From an uncultured bacterium (lineage in GTDB: Bacteria > Margulisbacteria > WOR-1 > CAVSGV01): a DNA stretch of 32,000 nucleotides. Under the pieces are notes generated by a model. The model had not been told where the DNA came from. It did not search any database and was given only the letters and a program-made list of their open reading frames with translations. The translations under genes and the position numbers were made by a program. Of this stretch, positions 10,348-31,600 are shown piece by piece; position 1 is the first letter of the stretch, and the number at the start of each line of letters is the position of its first letter. The stretch covers positions 1,050,001-1,082,000 of the forward strand of contig OY969425.1 of assembly GCA_963699255.1 (NCBI GenBank). The letters are read 5' to 3'.

Positions 10348-10463
10348 AAGGCGAACTTCTTACCTGACATAAGAAAATCTCTCGGATGATTTCTGGACTA
10401 TCCGGATTGTGGAATAGATGTCTATCTCCAGTAGCTTCGAGTCCAGCACAAAGCCAAATATCC

Positions 10464-10492
10464 TTGACTTTCCTTTACCCTTCGTGTAAAGT
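10464..10492 (+). promoter_or_regulatory. Putative sigma-70 promoter of the higB-HTH-immA-beta operon
   Basis: TTGACT (10464-10469), 17-nt spacer, TAAAGT (10487-10492), 12 nt before ATG 10505. Confidence 0.45.
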
Positions 10493-10504
10493 GTTTTGGA
10501 TGAT

Positions 10505-10837: not shown

Positions 10838-10839
10838 AT

Positions 10840-11070: not shown

Positions 11071-11930
11071 ATAGTTCATATCGTATATTTATTGCGAAAC
11101 AAAAAGATCAAGAGAAATATGCCGCGGCACAACGATGGATTAAAAGATTCCCCATAAAAGAACTGATTGAGAGGGGCTATCTAAAGGGTTCAGATAATAT
11201 TAATGAACTTACCGAACAGCTTTTAACTTTCTTTTCGGCTGGATCGTTAAATTCATTTAAAAGTCAAATAACTAATGTTGCTTTCCGCAAATCAGCAGCT
11301 TACCAGAGTAAGCCTGAAAGTGTTATGACTTGGCTTAGAATAGGCCAAGTTGAAGCGCAAAACACTGAAGCGCCATTGTTTAACAGGGACATGTTTACTT
11401 CTAATCTAAAAGAAATTAAGAGATTAACAACATGTAAATCAATTAAAGAAATGCTATTAAGAACGAGGGAATTATGCCTGAAGAGTGGCGTTGTTGTCTT
11501 ATATATTGAAGAAATTGAGCAAACTAGAGCAAGTGGTGCGGCATTTTGGTTAACCAAAGATAAACCGGTCATCATGCTTAGCTCTCGATATAAAACCGAT
11601 GATCATTTCTGGTTTAGTTTTTTCCATGAATGTGGACACCTGCTCAATGATAGCAAGAAAACAACATTTATAGATTATGATGATAATGAAGAAGATGCGA
11701 ACATCTTTGCAGGCAATTTCTTGATTCCACAAAAAGATTATGATGAGTATTTCGGGCAATTTAGAAATGCCGATTTAAACGCAATTATCGTTAATACTTT
11801 TGCTAAGAAAATTGGAATCGCTCCTGGAATTGTTGTCGGTAGGCTTCAAAAAGACAAAAAAATCGATTATGCCAAACAATATTCAAATCTACAAAAGAAA
11901 ATTGACTTTAAAGAAATTAATCGAACATGA
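11058..11930 (+). CDS. ImmA/IrrE-family (COG2856, peptidase M78) zinc metallopeptidase
   Basis: HExxH motif in FFHECGHLLND, and the linker RWIKRFPIKELIERGYL typical of HTH-ImmA fusion proteins. It starts at a TTG overlapping the HTH ORF in another frame. Its stop overlaps the next ATG as ATGA. Confidence 0.8.
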   Translation: MEELDSSYRIFIAKQKDQEKYAAAQRWIKRFPIKELIERGYLKGSDNINELTEQLLTFFSAGSLNSFKSQITNVAFRKSAAYQSKPESVMTWLRIGQVEAQNTEAPLFNRDMFTSNLKEIKRLTTCKSIKEMLLRTRELCLKSGVVVLYIEEIEQTRASGAAFWLTKDKPVIMLSSRYKTDDHFWFSFFHECGHLLNDSKKTTFIDYDDNEEDANIFAGNFLIPQKDYDEYFGQFRNADLNAIIVNTFAKKIGIAPGIVVGRLQKDKKIDYAKQYSNLQKKIDFKEINRT

Positions 11931-13168: not shown

Positions 13169-13272
13169 TGCGCACGTAATCTTTCAGTACAACTAATGGG
13201 AAATCATTGGCAAGCATTCCCCATAACAAATATTTTGGCTTACTAATTATCCCCTTTTCTACACCGTGCAAT

Positions 13273-13716
13273 TTAAAGAATTTCAACGATTTCACTTTTC
13301 CATAACAATTGAACAAGCGAAAAAGCATCTACATTATTGTTAAATCTATTTTGCCTAATCATCGTAAATTCTTTATCTTTCTTAAATCTTGGAATCAATT
13401 TAATGCCCCACCATGAGGGGATCATTTTTTTTGCTGACTTTAAATGCGCCTCATTCAATACAAGGGTAACAGTGTCCATAACCTTGTTATACACGACTAT
13501 TTGTGAGGGCAATCTTGCTAGCGTATCAAAGTCACTCTTTATTTCATATCCGTGCATATACCCATTAACTGCAGCTATATCAATCCTTGCCCCACCCTGG
13601 CACAATTCAAATTCCTCAATAATAGTGGTATTTTTCTCGGGTTTTAGCGTTGCCTCATGCTTGTAAAGGAGTTTTCTTATGTCTGCATCATACAAAGGAC
13701 TATACGACCTGGACAT
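13273..13716 (-). CDS. PD-(D/E)xK-fold nuclease-like protein (sce7726/MmcB-like)
   Basis: EFELCQGGARIDIAAVNGYMHGYEIKSDFD provides an E...D...ExK arrangement. 147 aa, convergent with the Beta-protein gene. The sce7725/sce7726 pairing is recalled from NCBI family names and is not verified here. Confidence 0.55.
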   Translation of the reverse strand: MSRSYSPLYDADIRKLLYKHEATLKPEKNTTIIEEFELCQGGARIDIAAVNGYMHGYEIKSDFDTLARLPSQIVVYNKVMDTVTLVLNEAHLKSAKKMIPSWWGIKLIPRFKKDKEFTMIRQNRFNNNVDAFSLVQLLWKSEIVEIL

Positions 13717-13803
13717 ATATAGGCCCCCCCTTTTTTTAACTGTGTGAAATTATACGCTTTTAAATTATTGATGCAAGGTAAGAAGATTGGTAAGCTGTGA
13801 TAA

Positions 13804-13836
13804 GAGGCACTTACGTCTCTTCCCAGTAAGTGCCTC
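13804..13836 (-). terminator. Hairpin downstream of the R-M gene
   Basis: Perfect 11-bp stem GAGGCACTTAC (13804-13814) / GTAAGTGCCTC (13826-13836) with an 11-nt loop, 18 nt past the stop of the minus-strand gene. On the minus strand it is followed by TTAT, a weak U-tract. Confidence 0.5.
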
Positions 13837-13853
13837 AACCTTAACACGACAGT

Positions 13854-16800
13854 TCATTTTCCAAGAAAATCAATCTCATCGATCTCTTTCATAATTTTAT
13901 CCGTTTCTGTCAGAGCAACAACAATCTTCTGATAATGCTCAATGTCTTCATTAGATAGCTTGCGCCCTTTTCGGTCCTTGAGCCATTTTTGCGCAGGCTG
14001 GTAGCCGCCAATATAGAAGTTCCACGCAATTTCCGGTACTTTACCAAAGTATTGTGTCGCATTTATAAATACCTTGCTGTCTTTATAGGTTAGCTTATCA
14101 ACAGTATCCGACCCCTCAACAGGGAAGGTTGTAATATATTTTTCTACTTTAGGTGATTCGAGCAGATGCAATCCACGCAATTCTGCGCCGAGCTTTACCA
14201 GCCCATTGAATGTCTTTGCGTCTTTCGGATAAGGCACTCGTGGAAAATCAATCTTTAAGAATTCCTTATACTTTTCGCGGTAACTTGGTGAATGTAAAAC
14301 CGCGTATATATAATCAAAAATATCTTCGGGGTTACTCTTCTTGACGATCCGTTCTATTGCATCGACAATAACCTTGCTAGTATTTGCTACTCGTCTCGCA
14401 TCATCAGCACAAAGATATAGCGGAAACACTGTATCAATACTTACACTGTCTGAACGTATATATCCATTAACTAAAGGCCCGTTTGCAATAAAATAATATG
14501 AAGAAGGCATATTAGCAGGAGAACGATTTACTGTTACCAAACCGATATTCCTCACAATTAAATGTCGCATAACTTCTTTCCTCATTCGCTCAATAAAATC
14601 TTTATGATAATATACAAAGCGAGTGTCAAATGGTCTATAACATATTGAGACAGTGTTGTTACTATTAAAGTCATGCTTCAGAGCCTCTGCGATCTTCCAT
14701 CCCGCATTCTCCTTTAATGAGTATTTTGACTTTGCCTCTTGTGGCGATTGGCAACAAAGAAAATTCTTAACTCTTTTTTCCAGTGTCTCTCTGTCAAAAT
14801 CAACAATAAAATCATCGCGCGAAGTTACAACCCCAACACTTGACACAGGAAATAATTCGGCAACAGAGAATCCTTTTCCATACTGCTCCCTGATTGCCTC
14901 ATTACGGGCTATCCATTCATAATTCGGCTCAATCGGGCATACAGTTTTCCATCCCACAGAATCAATTGAATGTGAGTCTAAATACTTAAACTTATCTGAA
15001 CGTGAGCCATAACAGTCAGCATGAAATATTTTTGCTTGATTATTCTTGCTATTCTTCTTTTTTAACCCAACAAATATAGAAACTCCAGTTTTAATATCAA
15101 AAACATTCTTATCGTCAGCCCCTTTAGGTGTTTTCTCTTGTTTATTTGCGTTGCCATGAAGATCAAGCACATATATCTCATCAAATGTTTTCATAAGACG
15201 GAATCGCATACCGCGAAAAGTAGGATTGTCAATGTAGCCGTGCGCTGTGATCATTGCCACTATGCCTTCTCCGGTTTTTTCGATCATACTTTCAGCATAC
15301 CTAATAAATTTTACATAATCATCATTCAGCCATTTTGAATTTCGCTCCTGCAATCTTCCACCTGTCGGTTCAACCTTATATACATCATTACCTGTATACG
15401 AAGCGTTACTTGATTCGCCTGAATAAGGTGGATTACCAATTACCACCATTATTGGTGTCTCATTTTTGATTTTGCTTGCTTCTTTTGCTTCTTCAGCAAT
15501 GCTTTCGGCCAAACCAAAAGAAAGCATGTCCTGTTGCACCTCGGTTTGTTCAAGAGAATTTGTCAAATAAATGCCTAATCTATTGTTAAATATCTTAAAC
15601 CCTGTCTTTTTGAATGCCATGCTTAATTTGAGATGCGCGATAGTATATGGCGTCATCATAATTTCGAACCCATGAAGACGCGGTAAAAGGTCATTGTGAA
15701 CATATGTTGTCCATCTTCCCTTTTGCCCCTGTTCGATCAATCTTTTATAGATTGTGTCAATAGTCGCGCTTATAAATGTGCCGGTTCCAACCGCTGGATC
15801 CAGGATTTGAACACGATGTTTTCCATTTGACAGCTTTGAAGAATCAGCAAGACCATTTGGAAGGCCAAACTCTTTTTGCAGAATGTAGTCTACCGAACGT
15901 ACAATAAAGTTTACTACCGGCAGCGGGGTATAATACGCCCCCATTTTCTTGCGAAGCTCTGGGTCATATTCTTTAAGAAAATCTTCATAAAAATGAATAA
16001 CGGGGTCCGGGCTCGCATGTTCTTGGCCGCCAATATCAATTTTGAAGTATTGACTCATCAGCTGTTGAACGTTCGCATGCAGAAAGACGATACAAAGTTC
16101 ATCAACAATATATTTTAAACGATCATCGTAGTCAGCTCCGGCAATATGATCAAAAAAGTGACGAAGGAAAGGGTTGGATGCCGGAACCAGATCCCTGGCT
16201 TCCTGACGGGAGAATGTATCCGGAGTTTCATCGTTATAACGAGCGACAAATAGCCCATAAACAAGTGTTTGCGCGTACATATCCGCAAAAGTATCTACGG
16301 TCAGGTCATGCACAAGTAATTTTTTTATTGTTTCATATACCCGCAATAGTCCCGCATTTTTCTTTGAATCTCTATCCGAAGAGAGATAGTGCCTAATATT
16401 ATCCCTTATTCTTTGCGCCTTTCCCCCCATGATCTTTGCAAGGTGCTCTCCTGATTTGATCGGCTCTTTTTGAGATTGCGTAAAGTCAACAAGGGTTTTC
16501 GCGACTTGTTCATAATTCTCCGGTAAAGGAGAGATAGTGCGGTTCTCTTTGTCAAAGCTTGCTATTTTGATCGGCTCTTCATAAGAAACCCCATTCCTGT
16601 AAAACCTAAATTCCAAATAATCCGTCAGCACCAAATTCGTATAGCCATAATACCTTGCCATTTGTTCGGATTTCTCAACCTTATCAAGCGAGATCCCAAT
16701 ATCTTTTGTTTCAATATAGAGGATAGGAACACTATTATTGATCACGACAAAATCCGGCTTATTCCCTTCTGCAGCCCTTTCATCGTGACCGATGCGTTGA

Positions 16801-16940
16801 ACCTTTATCGACTCGAATATGCCATTTAACAATATTTCAAAGTCGGTACGGTACCCCATCTCGCTTGTTTCTTTGTGGGCAAATTTAGAAGCGACAGACT
16901 TTAGATATTTGGAAACTAAATCATTTTTATTTTCTGCCAT
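13854..16940 (-). CDS. Single-chain type IIG-like restriction-modification enzyme (PD-ExK endonuclease + gamma-class N6-adenine methyltransferase + C-terminal target-recognition region)
   Basis: N-terminal NKPDFVVINNSVPILYIETKD (D...ExK), SAM motif I ILDPAVGTGTF, catalytic motif IV VVIGNPPYSG, and a ~450-aa C-terminal region with FPLY as in type ISP/IIG specificity domains. No helicase domain is present. Confidence 0.8.
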   Translation of the reverse strand: MAENKNDLVSKYLKSVASKFAHKETSEMGYRTDFEILLNGIFESIKVQRIGHDERAAEGNKPDFVVINNSVPILYIETKDIGISLDKVEKSEQMARYYGYTNLVLTDYLEFRFYRNGVSYEEPIKIASFDKENRTISPLPENYEQVAKTLVDFTQSQKEPIKSGEHLAKIMGGKAQRIRDNIRHYLSSDRDSKKNAGLLRVYETIKKLLVHDLTVDTFADMYAQTLVYGLFVARYNDETPDTFSRQEARDLVPASNPFLRHFFDHIAGADYDDRLKYIVDELCIVFLHANVQQLMSQYFKIDIGGQEHASPDPVIHFYEDFLKEYDPELRKKMGAYYTPLPVVNFIVRSVDYILQKEFGLPNGLADSSKLSNGKHRVQILDPAVGTGTFISATIDTIYKRLIEQGQKGRWTTYVHNDLLPRLHGFEIMMTPYTIAHLKLSMAFKKTGFKIFNNRLGIYLTNSLEQTEVQQDMLSFGLAESIAEEAKEASKIKNETPIMVVIGNPPYSGESSNASYTGNDVYKVEPTGGRLQERNSKWLNDDYVKFIRYAESMIEKTGEGIVAMITAHGYIDNPTFRGMRFRLMKTFDEIYVLDLHGNANKQEKTPKGADDKNVFDIKTGVSIFVGLKKKNSKNNQAKIFHADCYGSRSDKFKYLDSHSIDSVGWKTVCPIEPNYEWIARNEAIREQYGKGFSVAELFPVSSVGVVTSRDDFIVDFDRETLEKRVKNFLCCQSPQEAKSKYSLKENAGWKIAEALKHDFNSNNTVSICYRPFDTRFVYYHKDFIERMRKEVMRHLIVRNIGLVTVNRSPANMPSSYYFIANGPLVNGYIRSDSVSIDTVFPLYLCADDARRVANTSKVIVDAIERIVKKSNPEDIFDYIYAVLHSPSYREKYKEFLKIDFPRVPYPKDAKTFNGLVKLGAELRGLHLLESPKVEKYITTFPVEGSDTVDKLTYKDSKVFINATQYFGKVPEIAWNFYIGGYQPAQKWLKDRKGRKLSNEDIEHYQKIVVALTETDKIMKEIDEIDFLGK

Positions 16941-18156: not shown

Positions 18157-18406
18157 AAATTTACCTCACAAGTTAAGCATATTCTACTCTTATAAGAAGA
18201 AACAGACAATATTATATTTTGCTCCCCTGCCTTTCCAGTATAGCATTTTACCGCCTTTCCCTGTAAAGCGCGCTCACATTGGGACTTCGTATAAAGCCCC
18301 CTATCCCGAAAAAAGTCCTCATCCTTGCGGATTTTTTCGGGTATTAGTTCTCGCCCTCCTTCTGCCTTCCTACCTCTGCCTTCTTACTTCGTCCTTACCC
18401 CTTCTC

Positions 18407-18471
18407 CGTTGATCCGAGGAATATCCGTTGATAGCTTTATTCGTTGATTCGTTGTCTCATTCGTTGATAGC
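18407..18471 (+). promoter_or_regulatory. CGTTGAT-repeat element, copy 1 (33-bp core at 18439-18471)
   Basis: CGTTGAT at 18407, 18426, 18442 and 18462, plus CGTTGTC at 18450. The core is ATTCGTTGATTCGTTGTCTCATTCGTTGATAGC. TATAAT follows at 18477-18482 and ATG at 18494. Confidence 0.75.
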
Positions 18472-18493
18472 CTTTGCTATAATCAACAGTCAA

Positions 18494-19390
18494 ATGTTCA
18501 ATAAAACCGGTTTTATATCCTTTCTTTGCTTGATCTTATTGCAGATTCTTTGCGTAGGTTCTTTCGCTTTATCTGTACGCTCCATTGGAATGGGTGATGT
18601 ATACCCGCCTACCGGTCGCGACCCTTCCGCCATCTTCTATAATCCCGCCTATCTAGCCAATTGCGACAGCATCAGGTTATCGCTGGACAATATGAACGGT
18701 CCGATGGACCCGAAAGACAATATTGCGCTAAGCATGGGAGATCTCGGCATTGCGTCTTCTTCGCTTGGGAATGGCTCCGTTTTTTATCTGGCAACGGGCA
18801 TGAACACATACTCTTTCCTGCGGTTGGGGATTGGCGCAAAGTTCTATAACGATCAAAAGGATTTTGATGTTGGCTTCGATTGGGATGTGGTGAAAAATGT
18901 CGGTTTATCTGTCGCCCTTTTGAACGAAGAAGACAAGGTTTTGCCAAGGCAGTATTCAGCAACAATAGCCTATAAGTCAGACGACGGCGACAAATGCCTG
19001 GCCTTGAACTCCGACCTATCCGGAAATGTCAGGCTTGGATATGAAAAACAATTTACCGAAAAAGCCTTCTGGCGAGTAGGCTATAATGTCGACCATCCCT
19101 CCCTTGGCTGCACCCTTCCACTCTATCAAAATATCGACTTCGACCTTGCCGCCGAACTAGGAAAAGACAATACCAAGATACTATTTGGAATAGAGTTATT
19201 TCGTAATACCGAGAACAAGAGGGTGAATTCGGAACACAGTATCAATTTCGGCAAAGCGATCGTCGGAGAAGACGAAATTTATCAAAATCGACGGATTCAA
19301 TATCCATTATGTGGAATCCGGCTCAGGCCCCGATCTTGTCCTTATCGGCGGCGGCATACATTACACACATCACTGGGATCCTTACATTGA
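18494..19390 (+). CDS. Outer-membrane beta-barrel-like protein (PorV/FadL-like N-terminal signature); 3' end uncertain
   Basis: Signal peptide MFNKTGFISFLCLILLQILCVGSFA. VRSIGMGDVY...DPSAIFYNPAYLA resembles the aRslGMGGa...NPA motif of PorV/UPF0164-type barrels. A barrel-like C-terminal strand KILFGIELF lies near 19200. The remaining ORF to 19390 overlaps the hydrolase reading frame and is probably not genuine. Confidence 0.6.
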   Translation: MFNKTGFISFLCLILLQILCVGSFALSVRSIGMGDVYPPTGRDPSAIFYNPAYLANCDSIRLSLDNMNGPMDPKDNIALSMGDLGIASSSLGNGSVFYLATGMNTYSFLRLGIGAKFYNDQKDFDVGFDWDVVKNVGLSVALLNEEDKVLPRQYSATIAYKSDDGDKCLALNSDLSGNVRLGYEKQFTEKAFWRVGYNVDHPSLGCTLPLYQNIDFDLAAELGKDNTKILFGIELFRNTENKRVNSEHSINFGKAIVGEDEIYQNRRIQYPLCGIRLRPRSCPYRRRHTLHTSLGSLH

Positions 19391-20048
19391 GGAATGGTCT
19401 AAACATTTTCATGTGATAAATATCGACCAGCTCGGAGCCGGAGAATCGGACAAGCCGAATTACTTTTTCGGATATACGATAGAGGAACAGGGTGAATTGA
19501 TAAACGCCCTGCTTGAGAAGATAGGCGTCCAAGAAGCGTCCCTACTCGGGTACTGTTACGGTGGATCGATCGCTTTTTACATGGCGGGACACTATCCCGA
19601 TAAATATAAAAAGCTTGTGGAGATCGAGGGTTTTGTGCGGGGAATAAATACCATCCCCTTATACAGCGAAGAACATATGGAAGGAAAGAAAATGAGGCAT
19701 GACATTGAATATCTTAACGCTTATCTTGTCCGGGATTATGTTACTTTCATGTACCGCCTTGATTATCCGTATTTCAACGGCAAAATGTGGTATCAGCTGA
19801 ACAAGTCGGTGCTTTACAGCGACCTCAGGGATGAGATAAAGAACATGAAAGCCCCCGTTCTCTACTACGCAGGCACGAATTCATGGGCAAAGGAATTCCT
19901 CGGTCCGACCAAAGAATATATAAAGGAGAACGTAAAAGACCTGAAATTCATCGAGATAGAAGGCGCGGGTCACGATGTAGACAGGTTTGATGAACAACGA
20001 TTTCTGCGGGAAACGCTGGAATTCCTGAAAAGCTCGCCCCAGCCGTAA
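19311..20048 (+). CDS. Alpha/beta-fold hydrolase with a Cys nucleophile elbow (dienelactone-hydrolase-like); true 5' end upstream of the listed GTG
   Basis: DQLGAGESDKP and LLGYCYGGSIAF (G-Y-C-Y-G-G at 19548-19565), with C-terminal IEGAGHDV (catalytic His). The same frame upstream reads KFIKIDGFNIHYVESG, a typical N-terminal strand of the fold, but no ATG/GTG/TTG precedes it. Confidence 0.8.
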   Translation: MESGSGPDLVLIGGGIHYTHHWDPYIEEWSKHFHVINIDQLGAGESDKPNYFFGYTIEEQGELINALLEKIGVQEASLLGYCYGGSIAFYMAGHYPDKYKKLVEIEGFVRGINTIPLYSEEHMEGKKMRHDIEYLNAYLVRDYVTFMYRLDYPYFNGKMWYQLNKSVLYSDLRDEIKNMKAPVLYYAGTNSWAKEFLGPTKEYIKENVKDLKFIEIEGAGHDVDRFDEQRFLRETLEFLKSSPQP

Positions 20049-20080
20049 TGCTGGGGACTCGTATTCGTTTTCTCAACTTT

Positions 20081-20113
20081 ATTCGTTGATTCGTTGTCGC
20101 ATTCGTTGATAGC
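20081..20113 (+). promoter_or_regulatory. CGTTGAT-repeat element, copy 2 (33-bp core)
   Basis: ATTCGTTGATTCGTTGTCGCATTCGTTGATAGC, followed by CCCTCGCCTCC. It ends 16 nt upstream of the -35 hexamer at 20130. Confidence 0.75.
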
Positions 20114-20129
20114 CCCTCGCCTCCTTGGA

Positions 20130-20158
20130 TTGACTCTGTTTTATGCGTATGGGATAAT
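20130..20158 (+). promoter_or_regulatory. Sigma-70-type promoter of the methyltransferase/kinase operon
   Basis: TTGACT (20130-20135), 17-nt spacer, GATAAT (20153-20158). The A of ATG 20165 is 7 nt after the -10 hexamer, the same geometry as at 5523/5530. Confidence 0.6.
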
Positions 20159-20164
20159 AAAATC

Positions 20165-21223
20165 ATGAGGGGAACACAGGAAAACATTATGGAAAAAACA
20201 TATCCCGCCATAGAGAAAAAAATCATTGATTTTTCGGCTTTTTTAGCTCGTATTAAAGCTGAAAGCGAAACATACGACAGAACAACGCAGCAAGATGATG
20301 CTGCGATATCTATTATAAAGAAATTAGAGCGAAAATACTTCCCGGAGATCGACAGCCACTTTGAGCGTTTGTGGGATATGATCGTCAAGGTCGCGCCTGA
20401 TGAGCGCCAGGAGATTCAGGCTTTATTCAATAAACACCTTCTTGCTTATTTTCATTCCACCCCATTGAATCAAAGGATCATTGATAAACCTCTGGGGTAT
20501 GATGGGGACTACATTACGATGGGCTATTATTATCGGAACGGTTATGAAGGAAATACTATTTTTGATAAATTAATACATAGATATACTCTGCATATCCCCG
20601 TTGCTCAATCAGTGATCTTTAGATTCGCGTATTTTTACAAATTGATTAACGATACATACAAAGAGAACATAAAAGACAGAAAGATTAAAATTACCAGCCT
20701 TGGCTCTGGCCCGGCGATTGAGATACTAAATGTTCTAAGCGATCATATAAGCCCTACTGTTTTCGAGTTTTGTTGCGTTGATTCTGACCCAAATGCTATC
20801 GAACAAGTTAAATCCAATGTGAGCGAATTGTCTAAAAAAAGGAATATTCCGATTAACTTCGCTTTTTTAAATATGAATGTGCTGAAGTTTATAAAGTTTT
20901 CCAGAAGAAACGATATCCTTCAAGGACAACATCTGATATATGCCGGGGGGCTATTCGATTATCTCAATGCGAAAACAGCAACGGCCTTAATTAACTCTTC
21001 ATTCGATCTCTTAACTAAGCGGGGAAAACTTGTTATCACGAATTTCCGCAAAAACATCCCCTCAAGAGCTTACCTGGAAAATATCGGCGGATGGTTCCTG
21101 TTGCTAAGGGATGAAAAGGACATGCTCGATCTGTGTAAGGATATTGCTAGTAAGGCTGAAATATCGGTAGATGTTGACCGCGAAACAGAAACCAATTTAT
21201 ACTTAACCATTCAAAAGAAATGA
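20165..21223 (+). CDS. Class I SAM-dependent methyltransferase, PhcB-like (3-hydroxy fatty-acid methyl-ester signal-synthase-like family)
   Basis: Motif I ITSLGSGPAIEILNVL, CVDSDPNAIE, IYAGGLFDYL, plus the upstream DKPLGYDGDYITMGYYY element that I recall as the PrGYaGD motif of PhcB-type proteins. The alternative start ATG 20189 (MEKTY) has only a weak GGA 8 nt upstream. ATGA-coupled to the kinase. Confidence 0.75.
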   Translation: MRGTQENIMEKTYPAIEKKIIDFSAFLARIKAESETYDRTTQQDDAAISIIKKLERKYFPEIDSHFERLWDMIVKVAPDERQEIQALFNKHLLAYFHSTPLNQRIIDKPLGYDGDYITMGYYYRNGYEGNTIFDKLIHRYTLHIPVAQSVIFRFAYFYKLINDTYKENIKDRKIKITSLGSGPAIEILNVLSDHISPTVFEFCCVDSDPNAIEQVKSNVSELSKKRNIPINFAFLNMNVLKFIKFSRRNDILQGQHLIYAGGLFDYLNAKTATALINSSFDLLTKRGKLVITNFRKNIPSRAYLENIGGWFLLLRDEKDMLDLCKDIASKAEISVDVDRETETNLYLTIQKK

Positions 21224-23352
21224 ACTATTACATAATAACCGCTTTATTGAACTTTTTTGCCACGGGTTCGTTAGCTGTCATCGTGCTGTTCTCCAACATA
21301 AAGAACAGAATGAATCAAACATACGCTCTTACTTATTTGAGCATTGCTTTATGGGCGTTATTTTATTTCTTCTGGCAAACAGCCGCCAGTTATTCCGACG
21401 CCATGCTGTATCTCAAACTGCTTATGTTCGCGGCGACGTTCATGCCTATCTTCCTCTTCCATTTCATGCTGGCTTACTTAAATATCGAAAGAAAACACTA
21501 TTGGTTTTTATCTGCGCTTTATCTGATCGGTTTTATTTTTATCCTGTGTATATATAACAATCTTTTATTTGACACGCTAACCCCAAAACTTGGCTTTCCG
21601 TTTTGGCCCAACGCCGGCAAGGTCATGAATCTCTATATGGCTTTCTTTTTTGGTTTTATTCTTTATGCGATGTTCATGTTATACAAAAGCTTTATGTCTT
21701 CATTTGGCAGCACAAAAACAAGGATCATTTATCTTATTGTAGGGCTTGGTTTTGCGATCCTTGCGGGATCTCCGAATTATTTTTTGTGGTATAACATCCC
21801 TATCCCCCCGATATTAAATCCTTTATTTATCGTCTCAGTAGCAATAATCGGCTATGCCATTTTGCGCCACCGCCTCATGGATATACAGTTCATCATTAAA
21901 AAAGGTATCGTTTACTCCGCCTTGGTCGCCGTTATCATAGGCCTATATTCCGCGCTTCTCCTTGTAATTCAGCAATTATTCCAGTCAACGATCGGCGTTA
22001 ATCAATGGCTTGCTACGGTCATCACGGCAATTTGCATCGCCGCCGGTTTCAGGCCCCTCGAAATTGCTTTCACGAACTTTACTGACAAAGTCTTCTTTAA
22101 GGCCAAATACAACTATCAAAGGACCCTTGCAGAGCTGTCAAAGGGTATGGCAGAGCTGACAAACCTGGAAAGGCTGACAAAGCTTGTCGCCAAAATCGTG
22201 GTCCGAAATATGAAACTCGAAGGATCCATGCTGTTTGTTTATGATTATCGGGACAACAATTTCAACGCCGTATCCGCTCAGGGCAATATGAAGAGCTTTA
22301 GAGGAATGACGCTTCTTAAAGACGACCCGCTCATCAAGCGGCTTGACCAGACCGAAGATGTGATAATCAAGGAAGAATTGGTTCATGAATTTGAAGATAA
22401 ACAGCTTATAGTCTCATTCAGGGGCGAGATTAAGGATATTATTAAACAGATGGCGAATTTCAAAGCCGTTCTCTGCGTTCCCAGCAAGATAAAGGGCAAA
22501 TTGATCGGCTTTATTATGCTTTCTGATAAAAAATCACAGGACACATATTCTACCGAAGATTTGATGCTTTTCCAGACTCTGGCTCCGCAAGCCGCCATCG
22601 CCATCAAGAACGCTATGACCTATGACGAGATAAGGAAGGAATTGGAAGCGCATCAGAGAAAGCTGAATGAAACGGAAATAAATCTCTCCAGGTCCGAAAG
22701 GATCGCTTCCATGGCTCGGCTTATCCAGGAATATAACCATGAGATAAGAACGCCGCTTGCGATAATGAGCGCCAAATTACTTAGCCTTCCAGATAATCCC
22801 GGTGATATTGCCGATTTCAAGGAATTAAAAGCCTTTTTCGAGAAACAGATAAACAGGGCTTCTGACATCGTTGACACGACACTTCGCCTGAGCCAGCCCA
22901 AAGAGCATAAAGAAGAACTTCTTGATCTCAATAGCGTCATTGAGGACGCGCTTAAACTATACCAGCCGATTGGTCTGAATCTGATCAAAGAATTAAATCC
23001 TTTACCCGAGATCAAAGGCGATCGTGACGATCTGAAACTTGTATTTATTAACCTGTTAAAAAATGCGAGAGAGGCAACACCTGAAAAGGGCGATATAAAG
23101 ATCCGTACTTACATTGAGGACGAAAATGGCGAAAAATATGTTATCGCCAAAGTTTCGGACCACGGCATAGGCATCCCCAAAGAGAATATGGATAAGATTT
23201 TCGAGCCGTTTTTCAGCACTCATACGACAAAAGGAAGAGGCCTTGGGCTTTCACTGGTTTTCAGGATCGTAAGAGAGCATCACGGGAAGATCGAGGTTGA
23301 AAGCGAGGTCGGGAAAGGCTCTACATTTTCAGTCAGGATTCCGATCAGTTGA
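21220..23352 (+). CDS. Sensor histidine kinase (N-terminal ~7-TM sensor, GAF, HisKA, HATPase_c)
   Basis: Seven hydrophobic segments in the first ~290 aa. GAF-like region (LEGSMLFVYD...LCVPSKIKGKLIGFIMLSDK). H-box YNHEIRTPLAIM, N-box LLKNAREA, G-boxes DHGIGIP and GRGLGLSLV. Confidence 0.92.
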   Translation: MNYYIITALLNFFATGSLAVIVLFSNIKNRMNQTYALTYLSIALWALFYFFWQTAASYSDAMLYLKLLMFAATFMPIFLFHFMLAYLNIERKHYWFLSALYLIGFIFILCIYNNLLFDTLTPKLGFPFWPNAGKVMNLYMAFFFGFILYAMFMLYKSFMSSFGSTKTRIIYLIVGLGFAILAGSPNYFLWYNIPIPPILNPLFIVSVAIIGYAILRHRLMDIQFIIKKGIVYSALVAVIIGLYSALLLVIQQLFQSTIGVNQWLATVITAICIAAGFRPLEIAFTNFTDKVFFKAKYNYQRTLAELSKGMAELTNLERLTKLVAKIVVRNMKLEGSMLFVYDYRDNNFNAVSAQGNMKSFRGMTLLKDDPLIKRLDQTEDVIIKEELVHEFEDKQLIVSFRGEIKDIIKQMANFKAVLCVPSKIKGKLIGFIMLSDKKSQDTYSTEDLMLFQTLAPQAAIAIKNAMTYDEIRKELEAHQRKLNETEINLSRSERIASMARLIQEYNHEIRTPLAIMSAKLLSLPDNPGDIADFKELKAFFEKQINRASDIVDTTLRLSQPKEHKEELLDLNSVIEDALKLYQPIGLNLIKELNPLPEIKGDRDDLKLVFINLLKNAREATPEKGDIKIRTYIEDENGEKYVIAKVSDHGIGIPKENMDKIFEPFFSTHTTKGRGLGLSLVFRIVREHHGKIEVESEVGKGSTFSVRIPIS

Positions 23353-23832
23353 TCATTGGTGTTTTTCTTTATAAGCCTTTCTCTTTTCTTCGCCGGCCAG
23401 ATAATCTTCCATCGTTTCCTGTGCCATTTCCTCACCTTTTCCCTCAAAGAATCGCTTTAATGTGTTTATGACTTCATCTTCCTTGAACGGCTTTTTAATG
23501 TATCCCGCCACGTAAGCCGACGCAACTTCAAGCCATTTATCCTCATCTTCATATGCGGTAAGCATAATAACGCCTATCTTGTCTTCATATTTCTCCCTCA
23601 GCTTGTCCAAAAATTGCAGTCCATCCATCTCGGGCATTTTTATGTCGAGAAGAATACACTTGATACGGTTGTGGCCAAGTCCCAATAATGGCATATTTTT
23701 ATCTATGGTTTCAAATGCTTCTTTGGCGGAATTTGCCGTGATAGCTTCGTAACCGATCTTTCGAAGAAAGGCCGCAGCCGCATCCGCGAATTCTTTTTCA
23801 TCATCCACAACCAGAATAAGAGGCTTTTTCAT
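23353..23832 (-). CDS. Stand-alone CheY-like response-regulator receiver
   Basis: LILVVDDEKEF, phospho-acceptor ILLDIKMPEMDG, MLTAY, GYIKKPF. No output domain. Its stop codon directly abuts the kinase stop codon. Confidence 0.9.
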   Translation of the reverse strand: MKKPLILVVDDEKEFADAAAAFLRKIGYEAITANSAKEAFETIDKNMPLLGLGHNRIKCILLDIKMPEMDGLQFLDKLREKYEDKIGVIMLTAYEDEDKWLEVASAYVAGYIKKPFKEDEVINTLKRFFEGKGEEMAQETMEDYLAGEEKRKAYKEKHQ

Positions 23833-23964
23833 GTTTATCCCCTCCTACGGCAAATAATATATCACAATCCGGCCCCGAAGCAACAGCAATAATATGATTG
23901 GCTATTGAAGAACGTTTGTAAGTTTTGTTCTTCTGCGGCTTTATCCGTAGGTCCGTTGCAAATC

Positions 23965-24010
23965 CGTTGATAGCCCTATTCGTTGATTCGTTGCCTCATT
24001 CGTTGATAGC
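23965..24010 (+). promoter_or_regulatory. CGTTGAT-repeat element, copy 3 (33-bp core at 23978-24010)
   Basis: CGTTGAT at 23965, 23981 and 24001, plus CGTTGCC at 23989. The core is ATTCGTTGATTCGTTGCCTCATTCGTTGATAGC, followed by TCCCTCGCCCCC. It lies between the divergent response-regulator gene and the 24250 operon. Confidence 0.75.
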
Positions 24011-24022
24011 TCCCTCGCCCCC

Positions 24023-24050
24023 TGTTAAACACCTATAAAAGTGCTATAAT
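24023..24050 (+). promoter_or_regulatory. Putative extended -10 promoter of the 24250-32000 operon
   Basis: TG-c-TATAAT (24042-24050) with a weak -35 TGTTAA (24023-24028). This leaves a ~200-nt leader before ATG 24250. Confidence 0.45.
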
Positions 24051-24249: not shown

Positions 24250-24816
24250 ATGATGAATTCAAAAATGACAATTTTGGTAGTACTTGTTGTATCAGTCATG
24301 TCCTTTCCCGCACATTGCTGGATGAGAAATGCGGATATAGCCGCCTCAAGAGACTCTTTAAGGCTCGGTTTATATTCAGATTTTTCATTTTCATATGAAA
24401 AGATAATAGATTCAGATACTTCTTTTGGACTTTCGTATTGGCCGCTTCCTTTATCAGGGTTCTCTTTTTTCAGGAATTTGCTAGACGTAAGTTATAATAA
24501 GCAGTTTTATCGTGACAATAAAACCAGTTGGTCATATTTCTATGGAATATTTGGGATGGAACAAAAATTAAATGATGTCTCCTTGGTTTATCCTCCTTCC
24601 TTGAAAACCAAATATTATTGGCAAAACTTCGCTGCCCCAACCATTGGCATTTCATATGGCTACAGATTCGATGATAGATGGCGAGCGCGAGTAAATTTGC
24701 TTTATTTCTTTGATCCTTATGATATGGAATTGGCATATTTATTTTCTGATAATTACGAAATATCAATTGCCCTTAGTATGACAAATAGTATGTTTGGCGT
24801 TACTTATTTCTTTTAA
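24250..24816 (+). CDS. Small outer-membrane beta-barrel-like protein
   Basis: AGAGGA Shine-Dalgarno. Signal peptide MMNSKMTILVVLVVSVMSFPAHC. Alternating aromatic/hydrophobic strands and an OMP-type C-terminus FGVTYFF. Confidence 0.65.
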   Translation: MMNSKMTILVVLVVSVMSFPAHCWMRNADIAASRDSLRLGLYSDFSFSYEKIIDSDTSFGLSYWPLPLSGFSFFRNLLDVSYNKQFYRDNKTSWSYFYGIFGMEQKLNDVSLVYPPSLKTKYYWQNFAAPTIGISYGYRFDDRWRARVNLLYFFDPYDMELAYLFSDNYEISIALSMTNSMFGVTYFF

Positions 24817-24828
24817 AGGAGCTTAACA

Positions 24829-25620
24829 ATGAAAAATGCCGCAAAAGAAATCACCATACTCTTTATTGCATTTTTTACGATCGGAAGCGTCAAAATAACT
24901 GCATTTCAGAATCCCACCATAAATTATAATGACAAATATATTGAATCTGTGAACATTACTAATAATGTAATTACAAAGAAAAGAAAAAATGTTAATGACA
25001 TTGCGCCAACAATAACAATCAGATTTAAAAACCCACCTTCCTCTGTTATTGGATATATATTAGATTCATACGGCAATGCAATTGATCGATTATATGAAAC
25101 ACATTCTGAAATACCGAACAAAAAAGAATACATACTCAGAGCTCAATTCGATGATAATTATGTTTATAATGGATCGTATTATGTGCGAATGTTTATTAAG
25201 TGGGATGATGAAAACGGGAATGAAATACACAGCGAACAACTTAAATGCGACTATAAAATTAATATCCCTGAGAACACCATTAAAAATGGATTTTATATGA
25301 GGTCTCCAAATTCGAAGTTGTTTAATTTCGGTAATTTCAGCATTGACTCCAATCTATCTGACAAAAAAGATCCAATAATCGCCTGGGTAGATACAATAAA
25401 CAAGAACGTGAAAAAGTATCAATTATTTCTTGAGTCCAGCAGTACTTCAAATATGCCATACATTGACAATATAAACGCTCAGAAAAGAGAGATCATCATG
25501 AAAAATTATTTTATGAATAAAGCTCTTGGAGGTGGATGGATAAGAGCGGTTTTCAAGGATGGGAGTTACAAAGATACAGAAGGGATATCAAGGGTCAATT
25601 ATTTATATGATGGCATGTAA
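24829..25620 (+). CDS. Secreted or membrane-anchored protein of unknown function
   Basis: AAGGAG Shine-Dalgarno. N-terminal hydrophobic segment ITILFIAFFTIGSV. 263 aa with no motif that I recognise. Confidence 0.6.
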   Translation: MKNAAKEITILFIAFFTIGSVKITAFQNPTINYNDKYIESVNITNNVITKKRKNVNDIAPTITIRFKNPPSSVIGYILDSYGNAIDRLYETHSEIPNKKEYILRAQFDDNYVYNGSYYVRMFIKWDDENGNEIHSEQLKCDYKINIPENTIKNGFYMRSPNSKLFNFGNFSIDSNLSDKKDPIIAWVDTINKNVKKYQLFLESSSTSNMPYIDNINAQKREIIMKNYFMNKALGGGWIRAVFKDGSYKDTEGISRVNYLYDGM

Positions 25621-28600
25621 GAATAAAATACTATTTGTTATTTTATATATCTTATTTTCATGTATGGGAGCATACGCCGTAAGCCCATATAGAGATCAGA
25701 ATTTAAATGAGTTACCTGTCAAAAAAACAGAAAACTTCGGGATGTATAGAAAATATTCTAATGGCTTTCAAGAATTTCATACGGGGATTGATATAAAAAG
25801 AGGATTTGGGGCTAAGATATTTCCGGTTGCGAATGGAAACGTTGTTTTTGCGGGTTGGGGGACGGGATCTTTGAATGGGTACGGACAAATTGTAATTATT
25901 GATCACGGAGGCTGGCAAACCCAATATTCTCATCTTTCAAAAGTTTATGTGTCTGCAGGTGATCCCGTCGATACCTCTACCATTATCGGTGAAGAGGGAA
26001 TGAGTGGTCCCAATGGAAATCTTCATTACTACCCTTCTCACCTTCATTTGATTTACAGCACTGGGACCATAACAAACGATGACAATAGAATAAATATCGC
26101 AGGCTTAAGAAATCCTATATTTAAGGGATTGGATAATTTCCTCTATGATGCGCAAAAGCAAACTGTAATAAGGGACGCATTCTTTGTAAGACCGGGATTT
26201 GTTGATGGCGAATATAATTTTGGGACTTCAAAGGACAAAAAAGTTAGTATAAACGATAAAGAGATCTATAATATTGACTGGAATTATGGGATGCCAATAC
26301 GGATCATCGTTGAGGCATATGAAAAGATTTTCAATAACAGCACAAATCCTTATAGGATTCAATTCAAGATATTTGATAAATACGGATCCGTTTTTGATGA
26401 ATCTATCTCATTTGCTGACCTAAACATAGATGGGACTTACGATTACAATAACGTGTACAGCTTAACAAGTCCAGCGATAACAAGAACCACTTTAAATGGA
26501 TATTCGAGAGATGATAGGCTGTATTTATTTAAAAAATGGTATCCATCAAATACGGGAGATTATACCGTAACAATAAACGCTTATGATGCCAGCCCATTTA
26601 ATCCAGATGGAATATTAAAAGACACTAAAACATTAAAAGTTAGATTGAATTACCTTGTTGGGCTAGTTTTGCCTCCCGACATAGGGCTTGCGACTGTTGG
26701 AGCTTCCCCATTGAAAATTGACATACTAAATATTAGCGAGAAAACATTTAACCCAGATACATATATAGAAGGTTATCCCCATGAAACGATAGTGGAATAT
26801 GCGGCAAACAGTGAGGTCGCCTGGAAAGTAAAGATTGTAGATGGTTTTAATAATACTGTAAGAAGTTTTGTTGATTCCAATGGTACAAACGGCCAAATAA
26901 TGTGGGATGGAAAAGGAGACAACGGCAATTCTTTATCCTCAGGAATATTTAAAGTGAATATAACTGGCATTGACGATCAAAATAATATAAGCACGTGTGA
27001 AAGCGAAATATGTCTTGACAAGGAAAATCCAGTATTTTGGTCAATCCCGAGTGTATCAAACACTTATATTACAAGCTCTACCGAATCGATCAAAGGATCT
27101 CTTTCAGTTAACAAAGATTGCTCTATCGTTGTCCATGCTATGGATAAATATGGATCACAAAGACTGCTTGGATATCCCTTAGCGGAAAATGCATACCAAA
27201 AAGCTGGTGAAAGATTTGAGTTCAACTGGGATGGTATAGGGTCACTCCCAAATGGGGATTATTCAATAATGGTTATTGCTACAGATATTGCGGGGAACTC
27301 TACAGATTATAGAATTCCCATCACTATTAACGTTGCAAATAATCTTCAACCACCATTACTCCCGGTTACTACTCAAGAGAGTGAGGAAAAACCCGGGCTC
27401 TCTGATTTACCGCCCATGGAAACAAGACCAATAATTTCTGCCCTTGACTTAGATGATCAGGGAAATATGTATGTACTTTATGGCAGGGATAATAAGGTAA
27501 AAATATTTGACAATCAAGGTAAAGAAATAAAGGAAATTAAGTCCTTTAATAACAATGATTCCTTTAGATTGCCGTTGGGCATATCTGTTGCACCCAATGG
27601 ATCGGCTTTTTGTGTTGCAGATACATATAACAATAGAATATTGGTATTTGATAAAAACGCCAATTTGGTGGCTGAAAGAAACATAGCTTTTAAGGGATAT
27701 TTAGACATTTTAAAACGCACATCTCATGTCGGGGGCCTTTGGCATGAAGATGAAGAAGAACGTCGAAATATCAATGGGGCAACTCGATATTTTAATATGC
27801 CAACGGATTTAAAATATATCCCTAAAAGCGAAGAGTTCTTAGTGTTAGATGCGAAACATAATAGAGTGCTTAAATTTGATAAATCGGGGAATCCAGCAGT
27901 TATGTATAAACATGATTTTACCGATCAAGATAAATTAGATGAAGAAAAACTAATGCAGATGTCTAGGCAAATACCGTCAGCCGAAGAAAACCTTGGCTTA
28001 AATTTATGGGCAAATTTCGTCAATATTTGTGCGTCGGCATTTTATGGATTTTTTGGTAACACAGAAGTCATTAGCGCAGATTATTATTCAAATGAATTGT
28101 ACGAAAGTTACAGTTTTATTCATGGTTTTAACCCCAATAGTTCCGTTTCTGCTCCTGGAGACATTTATTCATCTGGCAGTCCTCCTGGTTTGTTTTTAGA
28201 TTCAAAAGCTTTTTCCATTGCTCACGATCATTCTTTTGCTATCGCTGATACGGTAAATAATAGGGTCCAATGCATGGATTCTGGCGGAAAAATCACTGAC
28301 GTTTTTTTGACTGCTGGTGCTGGCGAAACCGGAATACTTAGCCCAGAAGGAATAGCCAAAGATGATGATGGATATATATATGTTGCTGATACGGGAAACA
28401 ACCGCATCCAACGCTTTACCAAAGAACACACCTTCCTTTGCACTTATGGAGATTCAAATCTTTCGCCATCTCCACAGAAACTTATCGTAAAAATGGTTAA
28501 TGGAAAAAAATGGTTGCTCTATGCGTCCGGAGGTCTGGAGAAAATTCAAACCTGCGAAACTGATGTCCCTCCCTCAGACTTTTACCTGCAAATACCGACA

Positions 28601-31600
28601 GATCGTCTTTATTATATTAACAATAACGGTCTACCCATTTCCTGGTCATGCAAACACGAAAAAGACTTCATTAAAATAAATAAATATCAGATCATGGGTA
28701 AGCGGTCAGATAGAGATTATTGGGAAATCGTGATGGATGACATCTCTCCGGAAAGTCGATCAGTTAACTTTCATTTCCCAAGCGAGGGCAATTGGACGAT
28801 AAATGTTAGAACTAACAATGGAATATCATTTAGAGATAGTAACGGAGCAACTAATATGGGTGATTTGCCAATTGCCACAAGGGAAATCCACGCTGTCTGC
28901 GACTTTACCCCACCCAGCATTTACGATTTTTTCATGAGCAACAATTATTTCTCGCCAACTGCTGTTGGAACACTTGATGCAACATTTAGCGTAACTGATG
29001 CCGGCTCGATCGAGCTTCAAGGTATCAATGCGAACATTTTCGATAACAAATCTAATTTAATTACTTCACTTCTCAATTTGAGAGAACCCGAATGCGGTAA
29101 ATATAATATTTCATGGAATGGCAAGGACGATAATGGCGCAAGAGTTCCGGATGGGCACTACTTGTTGTACGTCAATGCGACCGATAAGGCGGGCAACTAC
29201 CGCGAAACCTCAAAGGAGGTCATTGTTGATACGGTCAAACCAAAGATATCAAATATCAGTCTTTCAACAAACCTGATCACTCCGAATGACGGCGGAATAG
29301 ACGATCAAACACAAATTTCATTTACCCTCTCCAAAGCAGCAGCTGTTTCACTGGAGTTCATAGACATGAATGACAAACTTGTCAGGAAGATCGATATTGT
29401 CGCCTCACAGGATGCCGTAAATCAAGTGGGCTGGGACGGCAAAAGCGACGAAGGCGAGGTGACCGACGGGACATATAAACTGGTTTTCAGTGTAATCGAC
29501 CTCGCGGGAAATGAAACTGTTTATGACTATGATCAGAATATCCAGATAGATACATCTGCATATTTGCTTAATGTTATGGCAAGTCCGGAAGTTATGTCAC
29601 TCGTGATCCCAAATCCGAAGCCAATAACCCTATATTATTCCGTCCCCAATACCTGCACAGTTGAAGCGTTCATCACATATATGGGCAACAATATCTATTC
29701 TCTTGTTCCTTCCGAAGATATTGGAAGAGGAACATATAAAGCTGAATGGAATGGCAAAGACAACAACGGTAATAACGTAAAGGAAGGAAGTTATAATTAT
29801 ATATTCTCAGCTATCACTCCAAAAACGAACTTCACAAAGAAAGGAATCGTCCGGATAGATAATTCAAAGCCCTATGCATCGCAGATATCGACCTCCCCTT
29901 CCGAAGAAAGCATCCAGGAACTGGATCAAATGACTGATGACATTGTTTTTTCATATTATTTAACCGAAAAATGCTTTGTGACAATTGATATTCTCGATTC
30001 CTATGGCACAGTCGTATCAAATGTCATATCAAGCCAGCTGCAGGAAGCTAAGGGCAATTCCGTTAGTTTCAGCAAAGATAAATTGATGGGCGGAGGCGTG
30101 TTTGAGCCGGGTGAATACTCCATAAGATTGAAAATGGTCGATGAGGCGGGGAACGAAGAAACGCTCAATAAGGCGAACTTCACTATCATTTCAGGATTGA
30201 GCATTTCAAATGCTGTCGCATCGCCGTTAATATTCACCCCGAACGGAGATAATCACGATGACTATGTCACTTTCAAATATAAAGTATCCGGCGGCGTTGG
30301 AGATGTCACGGCAAAAGTAAAGATAAAGTCTTTAGCTGGAGCCACAGTTAAGACCTTCACCTCTCAGCTTGCGTCTTCGGGCTATGATCAAGAGATTTGG
30401 GATGGAAAGGATGAACATAATAACCTTTGTCCCGATGGGCAATACCAGTATGAAATATCCGCAGCCGACAGCGCAGGCAACCAAGCATCTGCAATAACAG
30501 GGAGCCTTACTCTCATAAGTAAACCAACCATAGTCGTTTATGCGGATCCGAAGACTCTTTCTTCCAGCGGGAATGACATGACTATCTACTATAACATCAA
30601 TTATCAGGGGCAGCTTATTACGGGTAATTCGCAGGTAACCGCGACCATATATGATCAATCTAATACAATAGTTTATTATTTTTCCGACACAAAAGGGGAA
30701 GGAAATTATTCTAATAAGTGGGCCGGGCAAAACAATCAAACCGGAGGGATCGTTCCTAACGGAACTTACAGGCTGGAGGTCAAGTCATCAGATCCTACGG
30801 GGACCATTTATTATTATGCGACAGATCTCGTTGTTGGCGCGCCGTTGCAGATAACGGGAGAAAGCGCCTCTCCGGCTATATTCACGCCGAACGGCGACAA
30901 CCATGATGATAATACGACCATAGGATATGTCGTGAGCGGCGGGTTTGGAAGTGTTGTGTCAACGGTTGAAATAAAGACTCTATCCGGAACAACAGTAAAA
31001 ACGTTTACAGATTCGGATGTTGGAACTCCCGTTACATGTTCTTTTACATGGGATGGTAAGAACGGATCAAACAACCTGTGTCCGGATGGAAAATATCAAT
31101 ATGAGATAACCGCGGCTGATTCCACAGGGGACTTATCCGCTCAAATTACGGGAGAAATTGTTCTTGCCGCGAATCCGACGATAACTATGTCCGCAACGCC
31201 AACAACAATATCCCCGAATAGCAATGCTTCCACAATTCACTGCACGATCAATTACGGGGGATTATTTTCCGGCAATTCGCAATTAACGATTGAGGTATTC
31301 AATGGATCCGGAATCAAAGTTTACTCACTTACCGGTTCAAAAGGAGAAGGCAGCTATTCATATCTCTGGGGAGGAGAGAATAATCAGACAAGCGGCTATG
31401 TCCCGGACGGAACATACACATTGGAAGTACAGGCAACGGATCCTACGGGGACAATTTATTCATATACTGCCGATCTTGTTGTCAGCGCGGGATTACAGGT
31501 AACAGGAGAGAGTGCTGTGCCGATAATATTTTCGCCAAACGGGGATAATCATTATGACACAACGACCATTTCATATTTTGTTTCCGGCGGTGTCGGAAAT

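Follow-up and report, generated by a model that had tools for sequence, protein, structure and literature searches.

The window analysed here is the whole 32,000-nucleotide stretch at positions 1,050,001-1,082,000 of the single 1.77-Mb contig (47.5% G+C) of an uncultured WOR-1 bacterium (genome label G000), and the element in question is a 33-bp array of CGTTGAT-type words that stands ahead of three of its plus-strand gene units. Copy 1 precedes genes for an outer-membrane protein and a hydrolase, copy 2 an operon that ends in a 7TM-GAF kinase gene, and copy 3 the genes of two secreted proteins and a giant protein (Table 1). As the earlier note on this DNA had described, the three copies match ATTCGTTGATTCGTTGNCNCATTCGTTGATAGC on the plus strand with 0 mismatches and differ at two positions only, 17 and 19, both within the spacer that separates word 2 from word 3; copy 3 does face a divergent CheY-like gene on the minus strand. 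No further match to ATTCGTTGATTCGTTGNCNCATTCGTTGATAGC was present in the window with 3 or fewer mismatches, and none arose in 100 dinucleotide shuffles.

The finer anatomy reported from the sequence held up as well. Extra word-containing stretches upstream of copies 1 and 3 (CCGTTGATAGC) were seen at 18425-18435 and 23964-23974, and C-rich tails, CCCTCGCCTCC and TCCCTCGCCCCC, follow copies 2 and 3. A variable-gap scan resolved the CCGTTGATAGC stretches as parts of a second complete unit, here called type A, in which CC replaces TT ahead of each CGTT. Alignment of this genome's copies gave the unit consensus YCGTTNAT, YCGTT, a 6-7-nucleotide (nt) AT-rich spacer and YCGTTGATAG(C), with words starting at 0, +8 and +19/20 (55 units from four genomes were tabulated); homology was lost sharply beyond GATAGC, the short C-rich flank excepted. 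C-rich tails like those of copies 2 and 3 also border arms elsewhere in the genome, and TGCTATAAT can be read 3' of copies 1 and 3 (18475-18483 and 24042-24050). For the arms at 496596 and 1202919 the outer flank is CCCTTACC, whose complement there gives the upstream gene's TAA stop. At these two left arms (496589-496596 and 1202912-1202919) the stop lies inside the conserved outer flank GGTAAGGGR-GCTATC, and the element may supply, or target, the stop codon.

A search of the genome with the 33-mer, as the earlier note had proposed, located more copies, with targets not confined to the three promoters. The full 33-mer has 4 copies genome-wide at up to 3 mismatches, and a variable-gap pattern, used in place of a fixed-gap position weight matrix and a CGTT-density scan, of which the one was too strict and the other too noisy, found 14 units at 8 intergenic loci. 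The note had reserved the name of a dispersed REP/MITE-like repeat for an element at hundreds of unrelated loci; what was found corresponds to such a repeat in kind, though not in number (8 loci, not hundreds). Copy 3 and the left arm at genome position 501637 are identical at 29 of 31 positions, spacer included, and lie about 570 kb apart; copying between these loci has therefore occurred.

The arms are linked to a nuclease-fold gene at 496.6 kb and 497.2 kb, where units bracket in inverted orientation a gene of 166 amino acids (496687-497187). Its product matches PF13366 (PDDEXK_3) at 1e-30 and TIGR04256 (GxxExxY) at 1.6e-31, keeps the D72, E82-x-K84 nuclease motif and the G..E..Y motif, and is the sole such protein encoded in the genome. 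The flanks are strongly complementary (Smith-Waterman score 42 vs 13.7 +/- 2.0 for shuffles, z = 14.2), and the full cassette, two inverted arrays around a small GxxExxY/PDDEXK_3 gene, measures about 0.6 kb. Of the 22 PDDEXK_3 genes of the class, 14 likewise have complementary inverted flanks (z > 4), which in each case consist of repeats of one short word. The word vocabulary tracks the subfamily of the open reading frame (ORF): AACG(G/A)AT words accompany four ORFs that are 58-100% identical to the ORF of G000 (in G000, G005, G015 and G009), and ORFs at most 39% identical use CGCGAA, CACGAA, GCCAAG, CACTAAG, GCTAAT or CCCGAAAA. Metagenomic homologues at 84% and 76% identity have clear arms of the same kind, and a 67% homologue has degenerate arms only. 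Close homologues of the cassette occupy at least two different contexts, the spacer between an outer-membrane-protein gene and an NHL-repeat gene, as in G000 (L128), and the divergent control region of an enzyme plus 7TM-GAF kinase operon (G005, L130 and L133). A superfamily survey gives the function of PDDEXK_3 as unknown (PMC3424549). Genes for the four-helix-bundle family PF05635 (23S rRNA intervening-sequence protein) were rejected as an alternative partner: G000 has 10 of them, at 465438, 495300 and eight other sites, and CGTTGAT units stood next to none of these 10 and to none of the 14 PF05635 loci covered. The three of the 10 whose flanks were read have word vocabularies of their own, and the one unit found near a PF05635 locus, in L118, is an arm of the neighbouring PDDEXK_3 cassette. 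Two of the 10 share islands with CGTTGAT arms.

We propose, with a probability of roughly 0.6, that the window copies are solo arms of the CGTTGAT-word variant of this GxxExxY cassette repeat family. The copies would have arisen in the same way as cassette ends spread, through mobilisation by the cassette protein or through recombination or gene conversion between arms; such a shared copying process would explain the near-identity of the copies with one another and with the arm 570 kb away. The words would be iterated sites read by a protein, for which the cassette's own nuclease-fold protein is the best candidate here because vocabulary and ORF subfamily travel together. A regulatory side-effect of the arms on the three neighbouring promoters is possible; it would be incidental or reflect later co-option and would not be why the repeats exist.

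Folding separates the paired arms from the window copies. The dyad at 501.6 kb folds at -32 kcal/mol (z -6.7) and that at 1202.9 kb has z -2.5, whereas the window arrays fold no better than shuffles (z +0.33, -0.14 and +1.94 for copies 1, 2 and 3), nor does the solo pair at 473 kb. Since pattern and variable-gap scans also found no minus-orientation unit in the window, its copies are unpaired 'right arms'; the outer end of each points to the next plus-strand gene, and two of the three are doubled as A-B. Across the 55 tabulated units, which include 8 dyads, the words hardly vary and the spacers do so freely. Partner arms of a dyad resemble each other no more than random or non-partner pairs from the same genome do (20.5 vs 20.6 of 24 positions), and at the variable C/T position they agreed in 13 of 24 cases, vs 72% for non-partners. 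Conservation thus lies in the words rather than in the spacers or in arm pairing, and the words therefore look like iterated protein-recognition sites, to judge from the aligned units. To this extent the multimeric binding sites suggested earlier find support; their regulon and cognate factor do not.

The same data bear on a role at the RNA level, in which paired arms would be processed (as in rRNA intervening sequences) or form an mRNA-stabilising stem, and solo arms would stay single-stranded and be bound by a protein that recognises RNA, in 5' leaders or between cistrons. Left arms begin 0-6 nt past stop codons within same-strand gene strings and so are probably transcribed, the dyads and cassette flanks are strongly complementary, and the window arrays are unusually unstructured (z up to +1.9), as a single-stranded platform would be. 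However, dyad partners show no compensatory agreement at the C/T position, solo arms cannot pair, and the divergent promoter regions that hold copies 1 and 3 place them ahead of predicted -10 elements, which makes plus-strand transcripts of these two improbable. We consider an RNA element very unlikely.

Relatives place the unit in a wider but bounded setting. It occurs in 7 of 65 genomes of the class, including G005 of the same family, G015 and G045 (family f10), G060 (f12) and two species of genus g20 (G021 and G027), with 16 and 17 fixed-gap units per genome in the g20 species and more when the gap was allowed to vary. Scan controls were almost clean, with one reversed-pattern match, in G005, in the 1-mismatch scan. 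Among 185,579 species genomes, exact matches fell almost only in WOR-1/Margulisiibacteriota records or in metagenome-assembled genomes that GTDB puts in the class, with three singletons elsewhere. Arm neighbours in G000 are PorV-like outer-membrane proteins, type IX secretion cargo and 7TM-kinase modules; those in g20, G060 and G015 are unrelated genes (M50 peptidase, DJ-1, tsaD, radical-SAM, MFS transporter, lolA, dapA, a shikimate-dehydrogenase-like (aroE-like) gene, APH kinase, DUF3298, trxB and hrcA), of housekeeping type in g20, and the arms there usually start right behind a stop codon with GCTATCAACG. The unit also stands in frame in the variable loop of queA, an essential gene, in G027 (L024:367-396), G021 (L081, about 1800-1835) and the metagenomic contig L112 (2221-2252), and a queA loop is the sole metagenomic match to the B unit; queA is without it in G030 and G033, members of the family of G021 and G027. 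Between species the amino acids of these queA units vary and the DNA words persist, which points to constraint, or repeated copying, at the DNA level.

It is most improbable that the units are low-complexity sequence made in place by replication slippage, without inter-locus copying or function. The queA gene of G000 (about 1515270-1515300) does have a short loop with a single ATCAACGGA word at the place where other lineages hold the three-word unit. The genome is also rich in other short-word arrays, such as the tract that adjoins copy 1, which has another vocabulary and in which Tandem Repeats Finder reports a period-14 array at 18361-18387, and other cassettes of the class use other vocabularies. 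On the other hand, the three-word layout, the spacing and the GATAGC end are found again at loci far apart and across four families of the class, copy 3 and the 501637 arm share even the spacer, and slippage would yield regular tandem periods, whereas Tandem Repeats Finder reports inside each unit just an internal two-copy 8-mer.

Table 1. Repeat units and neighbouring features in the window, and units elsewhere in genome G000 (nt, nucleotides; aa, amino acids)
Feature	Position	Strand	Basis or remark
Pyrimidine-rich tract, period 7/14, CTGCCTT-type words, running into copy 1	window 18351-18405	+	sequence reading
Type-A unit of copy 1, CCGTTGATCCGAGGAATATCCGTTGATAGC, inner unit of tandem A-B solo arm	window 18406-18435	+	variable-gap regex scan, arm alignment
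Type-B unit, copy 1	window 18439-18471	+	outer end GATAGC; TGCTATAAT 3 nt on; ATG at 18494
Gene unit 3' of copy 1: PorV/PorQ-like outer-membrane protein (18494-19390), alpha/beta hydrolase (19311-20048)	window 18494-20048	+	
Type-B unit, copy 2, single unit	window 20081-20113	+	33 nt past hydrolase stop, 16 nt ahead of predicted promoter
C-rich outer flank of copy 2, CCCTCGCCTCCT	window 20114-20125	+	like flank of copy 3 at 24011-24022
Best sigma-70-like promoter match of region, TTGACT-17-TGnGATAAT	window 20130-20158	+	ahead of methyltransferase-like/kinase operon
Gene unit 3' of copy 2: 352-aa protein, then HisKA_7TM-GAF-HisKA-HATPase kinase (21220-23352)	window 20165-23352	+	
Stand-alone receiver protein, 159 aa	window 23353-23832	-	convergent with kinase, start facing copy 3
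Type-A unit of copy 3, CCGTAGGTCCGTTGCAAATCCGTTGATAGC	window 23945-23974	+	variable-gap scan, arm alignment
Type-B unit, copy 3	window 23978-24010	+	pattern scan, arm alignment
Gene unit 3' of copy 3: secreted proteins of 188 aa and 263 aa, family not assigned, then giant protein	window 24250-31999	+	
Two minus-orientation units, solo pair	genome 473223-473296	-	first base after stop of 7TM-GAF kinase
Two minus-orientation units	genome 496596-496662	-	4 nt after stop
One plus unit	genome 497197-497226	+	17 nt from ATG
Minus/plus inverted dyad, gene-less	genome 501636-501724	-/+	6 nt after stop
Gene-less dyad	genome 1202919-1202995	inverted	4 nt after stop of GH94 gene

The setting of the copies in the window had suggested a local regulon. 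Each copy does lie 5' of a plus-strand unit; the promoters are predicted from consensus matches, of which the region holds as many as shuffles lead one to expect. The label 'PhcB-like methyltransferase', given to the product of the first gene behind copy 2, was dropped: this 352-aa protein had no match in Pfam, NCBIfam or PDB, and all that can be read in it is a weak GxGxxxE-like stretch. The giant protein behind copy 3 (M23/NHL/FlgD_ig/CHU_C) is of the type IX secretion cargo type and runs past the end of the window. The response regulator was rightly described as having no DNA-binding domain; it consists of a receiver domain alone, and no DNA-binding regulator of a suitable type lies nearby. 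A cognate DNA-binding factor was found neither locally nor among the window genes, and the 14 receiver proteins encoded elsewhere were not tested. A LytTR-type operator was also considered and rejected: TCCGTTGAT fits the consensus of such sites, yet the genome encodes no LytTR domain. As regards recurrence upstream of related genes, the motif was absent from the 400 nt 5' of six distant methyltransferase-like homologues, all from other families; the best match is 33% identical, and the family holds no close orthologue.

Several observations nevertheless weigh against solo arms as the explanation of the window copies, and some of them favour an operator for a multimeric factor encoded elsewhere (an OmpR-type response regulator, or the PDDEXK_3 protein), which would co-regulate the three operons and perhaps other 7TM-GAF kinase or type IX cargo islands. 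The window copies share one orientation 5' of plausible promoters, as an operator would, copy 2 standing about 16 bp upstream of the best promoter match (TTGACT-17-GATAAT), and all plus-type arms in the genome precede a gene start, by 17-240 nt. Arms flank 3 of 7 HisKA_7TM kinase operons in G000, vs about 0.07 expected by a rough estimate from 8 loci among about 1,700 intergenic gaps, which exceeds what random scatter would give, and they occur at both kinase operons on the G005 contig, including upstream of its NAD_binding_4-kinase operon; the kinase association is partly that of one orthologous locus (G005, L130 and L133), and both clusters in G000 are accessory islands. Moreover, no PF13366 gene was matched in the g20 genomes G021 and G027, whose assemblies are 99% and 93% complete in 130-140 contigs. 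PDDEXK_3 is thus not a universal partner of the units, of which these genomes hold many, and the cassette protein therefore cannot be their sole reader or mobiliser. Neither strain variants nor a genome of the same genus were found, a metagenome scan giving one unrelated match and an exact-protein look-up of the receiver none. An operator would further be consistent with the conservation at the level of words, with the position of both variable sites within the 5-nt spacer (about p = 0.02 by position count) and with a direct-repeat layout like that of response-regulator operators such as TorR, PhoB and LytTR-type sites.

We nonetheless regard such an operator as unlikely, and the local regulon as not supported, because the same unit forms the inverted arms of a nuclease-gene cassette and gene-less hairpin dyads, follows stop codons as solo arms in the opposite orientation, and occurs beside unrelated housekeeping genes and within queA. 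At 497197 the arm and the ATG are separated by 17 nt, which contain a Shine-Dalgarno sequence only and offer no space for a promoter; in the window the distance from arm end to predicted -10 differs widely (5, 39 and 33 nt at copies 1, 2 and 3). The lack of a LytTR protein and of a nearby regulator, and of the element upstream of the distant methyltransferase-like homologues, points the same way. Regulation of the three operons would be compatible with later co-option of the arms. A replichore-orientation (KOPS-like) role was rejected, as arm orientation follows the neighbouring genes and not the replichore. By cumulative GC skew, replication starts near 1.43 Mb and ends near 0.50 Mb, so that the plus-strand operons of the window run head-on to it, and the cluster of arms and cassette at 466-503 kb coincides with this skew-predicted terminus.

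The kinase operons deserve separate mention. G000 has seven paralogous HisKA_7TM(-GAF) kinases (window 20165-23832; genome 466833-473222, 916075-920781, 1204079-1210650 and 1035952-1038916), and most are preceded by an enzyme gene of lipid or small-molecule type, which encodes an NAD_binding_4 reductase (twice), a ketoacyl synthase with a thioesterase, or the family-less 352-aa protein. Behind three of the kinases lie convergent stand-alone receiver paralogues (43-53% identical) with a charged tail and no output domain, and the loci look like a family of signal-synthase/sensor modules. The PDDEXK_3 subfamily with a C-terminal extension of about 40 aa, found in G000, G005, G015, G009 and metagenomic homologues, recurs in the divergent control region of 'lipid-type enzyme + 7TM-GAF kinase' operons. 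We speculate that this subfamily might be a putative sequence-specific reader of CGTTGAT arrays, a binder or nicking enzyme, that was domesticated from a selfish cassette into the missing DNA-binding output of receiver-only two-component modules; the orphan arrays of G000 would then have been co-opted as operators ahead of the kinase, outer-membrane-protein and surface-protein operons. We think this distinctly doubtful.

At the kinase locus 466833-468989, the NAD_binding_4 gene upstream (468991-470221) is split into two overlapping ORFs (468991-469983 and 469916-470221), which suggests a frameshift or a sequencing error. A second motif, CTGTCAATT-N13-17-TGTCGA / TGTCG-N-CGACA, occurs at genome positions 470261-470290 and 473320-473358 and, in the control region of the orthologous enzyme plus 7TM-kinase locus, in L130 (about 2850-2900), L133 (about 2830-2870 and 3620-3660) and L021 (about 1585-1630). 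It was rejected as a signal linked to the arms, being kept at this one orthologous kinase locus only, without genome-wide enrichment (24 sites vs 13-20 in shuffles) and with none in the window; it may be a real local operator or promoter of the enzyme plus 7TM-kinase locus.

Other features of the window and genome were recorded alongside. The window's other genes include dnaG, rpoD, an integrase-AAA fusion and a Type ISP restriction enzyme. Behind rpoD lies an island (window 3121-16940) with a methyltransferase, the tyrosine-integrase/AAA fusion (5524-6999), a YdjM-like gene, an M78/IrrE-like gene, a 'Beta protein' gene and the Type ISP restriction-modification enzyme of 1028 aa, and the repeat-bearing operons sit at its far edge. 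Just ahead of copy 2, a hairpin (CCCCAGC-cgtaat-GCTGGGG, window 20028-20056) spans the hydrolase stop codon and may be a terminator or a processing stem. Elsewhere in the genome, at least 200 bp are duplicated (near-)identically at about 204070-204260 and 1259600-1259790; the match to CGTTGATAGC in this sequence is fortuitous, and the duplication has nothing to do with the arm family.

Our results suggest that an array that looks like a plausible operator is probably a dispersed repeat, and that, in genomes of this kind, a regulon should be deduced from repeated motifs only after a check across the whole genome and across species. They also add to an apparently undescribed gene-plus-repeat system, the GxxExxY cassette with short-word arms, for which no published description was found: its vocabulary tracks the ORF subfamily, and its conservation in words points to protein recognition. 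Its arms survive in several settings: unpaired as direct copies close to promoters, in frame within queA, and in a genus in which no cassette gene was found.

Several known systems share features with these arms. Response-regulator operators are direct repeats, as in TorR boxes, Pho boxes and LytTR 9-mers with 12-nt spacers, and resemble the arms in arraying repeats of 7-9 nt upstream of promoters; the units described here, in contrast, also occur 3' of genes, within coding sequence and as dyads, in a genome without a LytTR protein, and they have no coherent set of target genes outside this genome. Correia/MITE-type elements are likewise small, intergenic and bounded by inverted repeats, and can land by promoters and alter expression secondarily; here, however, neither transposase-derived inverted repeats nor a target-site duplication was seen, and no promoter lies inside the arm.

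The closest published analogues are REP/REPIN-RAYT systems, ORF-bearing rRNA intervening sequences and cyanobacterial STRR arrays. ORF-bearing 23S rRNA intervening sequences carry an S23p (PF05635) four-helix-bundle ORF, and like these and similar cassettes the element described here has a small ORF between complementary arms and is wedged between genes. It differs in lying outside rRNA, in its ORF family, in conserving words and not pairing, and in having unpaired copies in the window. The short tandemly repeated repetitive (STRR) sequences of cyanobacteria, a sister lineage of Margulisiibacteriota, are regular tandem heptamers. Both are arrays of heptamer words in intergenic DNA, of function unknown in both cases, and the term STRR appears in PMC4748335. 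The unit described here is instead a fixed set of three words, spaced 8 and 11-12 nt apart, whose end is defined.

REP/REPIN elements with a single-copy RAYT gene (Bertels & Rainey 2011, PMC3116915; PMC3337134; PMC5581495) share several features with the arms: short intergenic repeats that occur as folding inverted doublets and as singlets, a single-copy gene flanked by its own repeats in inverted orientation, and restriction to a lineage with a copy number that varies between relatives. The gene flanked here, however, encodes a PD-(D/E)XK-fold GxxExxY protein and not an HUH/Y1 transposase (no search for a CGTTGAT-flanked RAYT was made). The arm consists of three 7-8-nt words without a palindrome of its own, single arrays folding no better than shuffles, and copy numbers are low (14 units here, 16-17 or more in g20), with mobilisation of the arms inferred only. 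As both a palindromic unit and an HUH transposase, which define REP/RAYT, are lacking, we do not place the arms in that family. If the cassette protein does read the arms, a different enzyme fold would underlie a system analogous to REP/RAYT.

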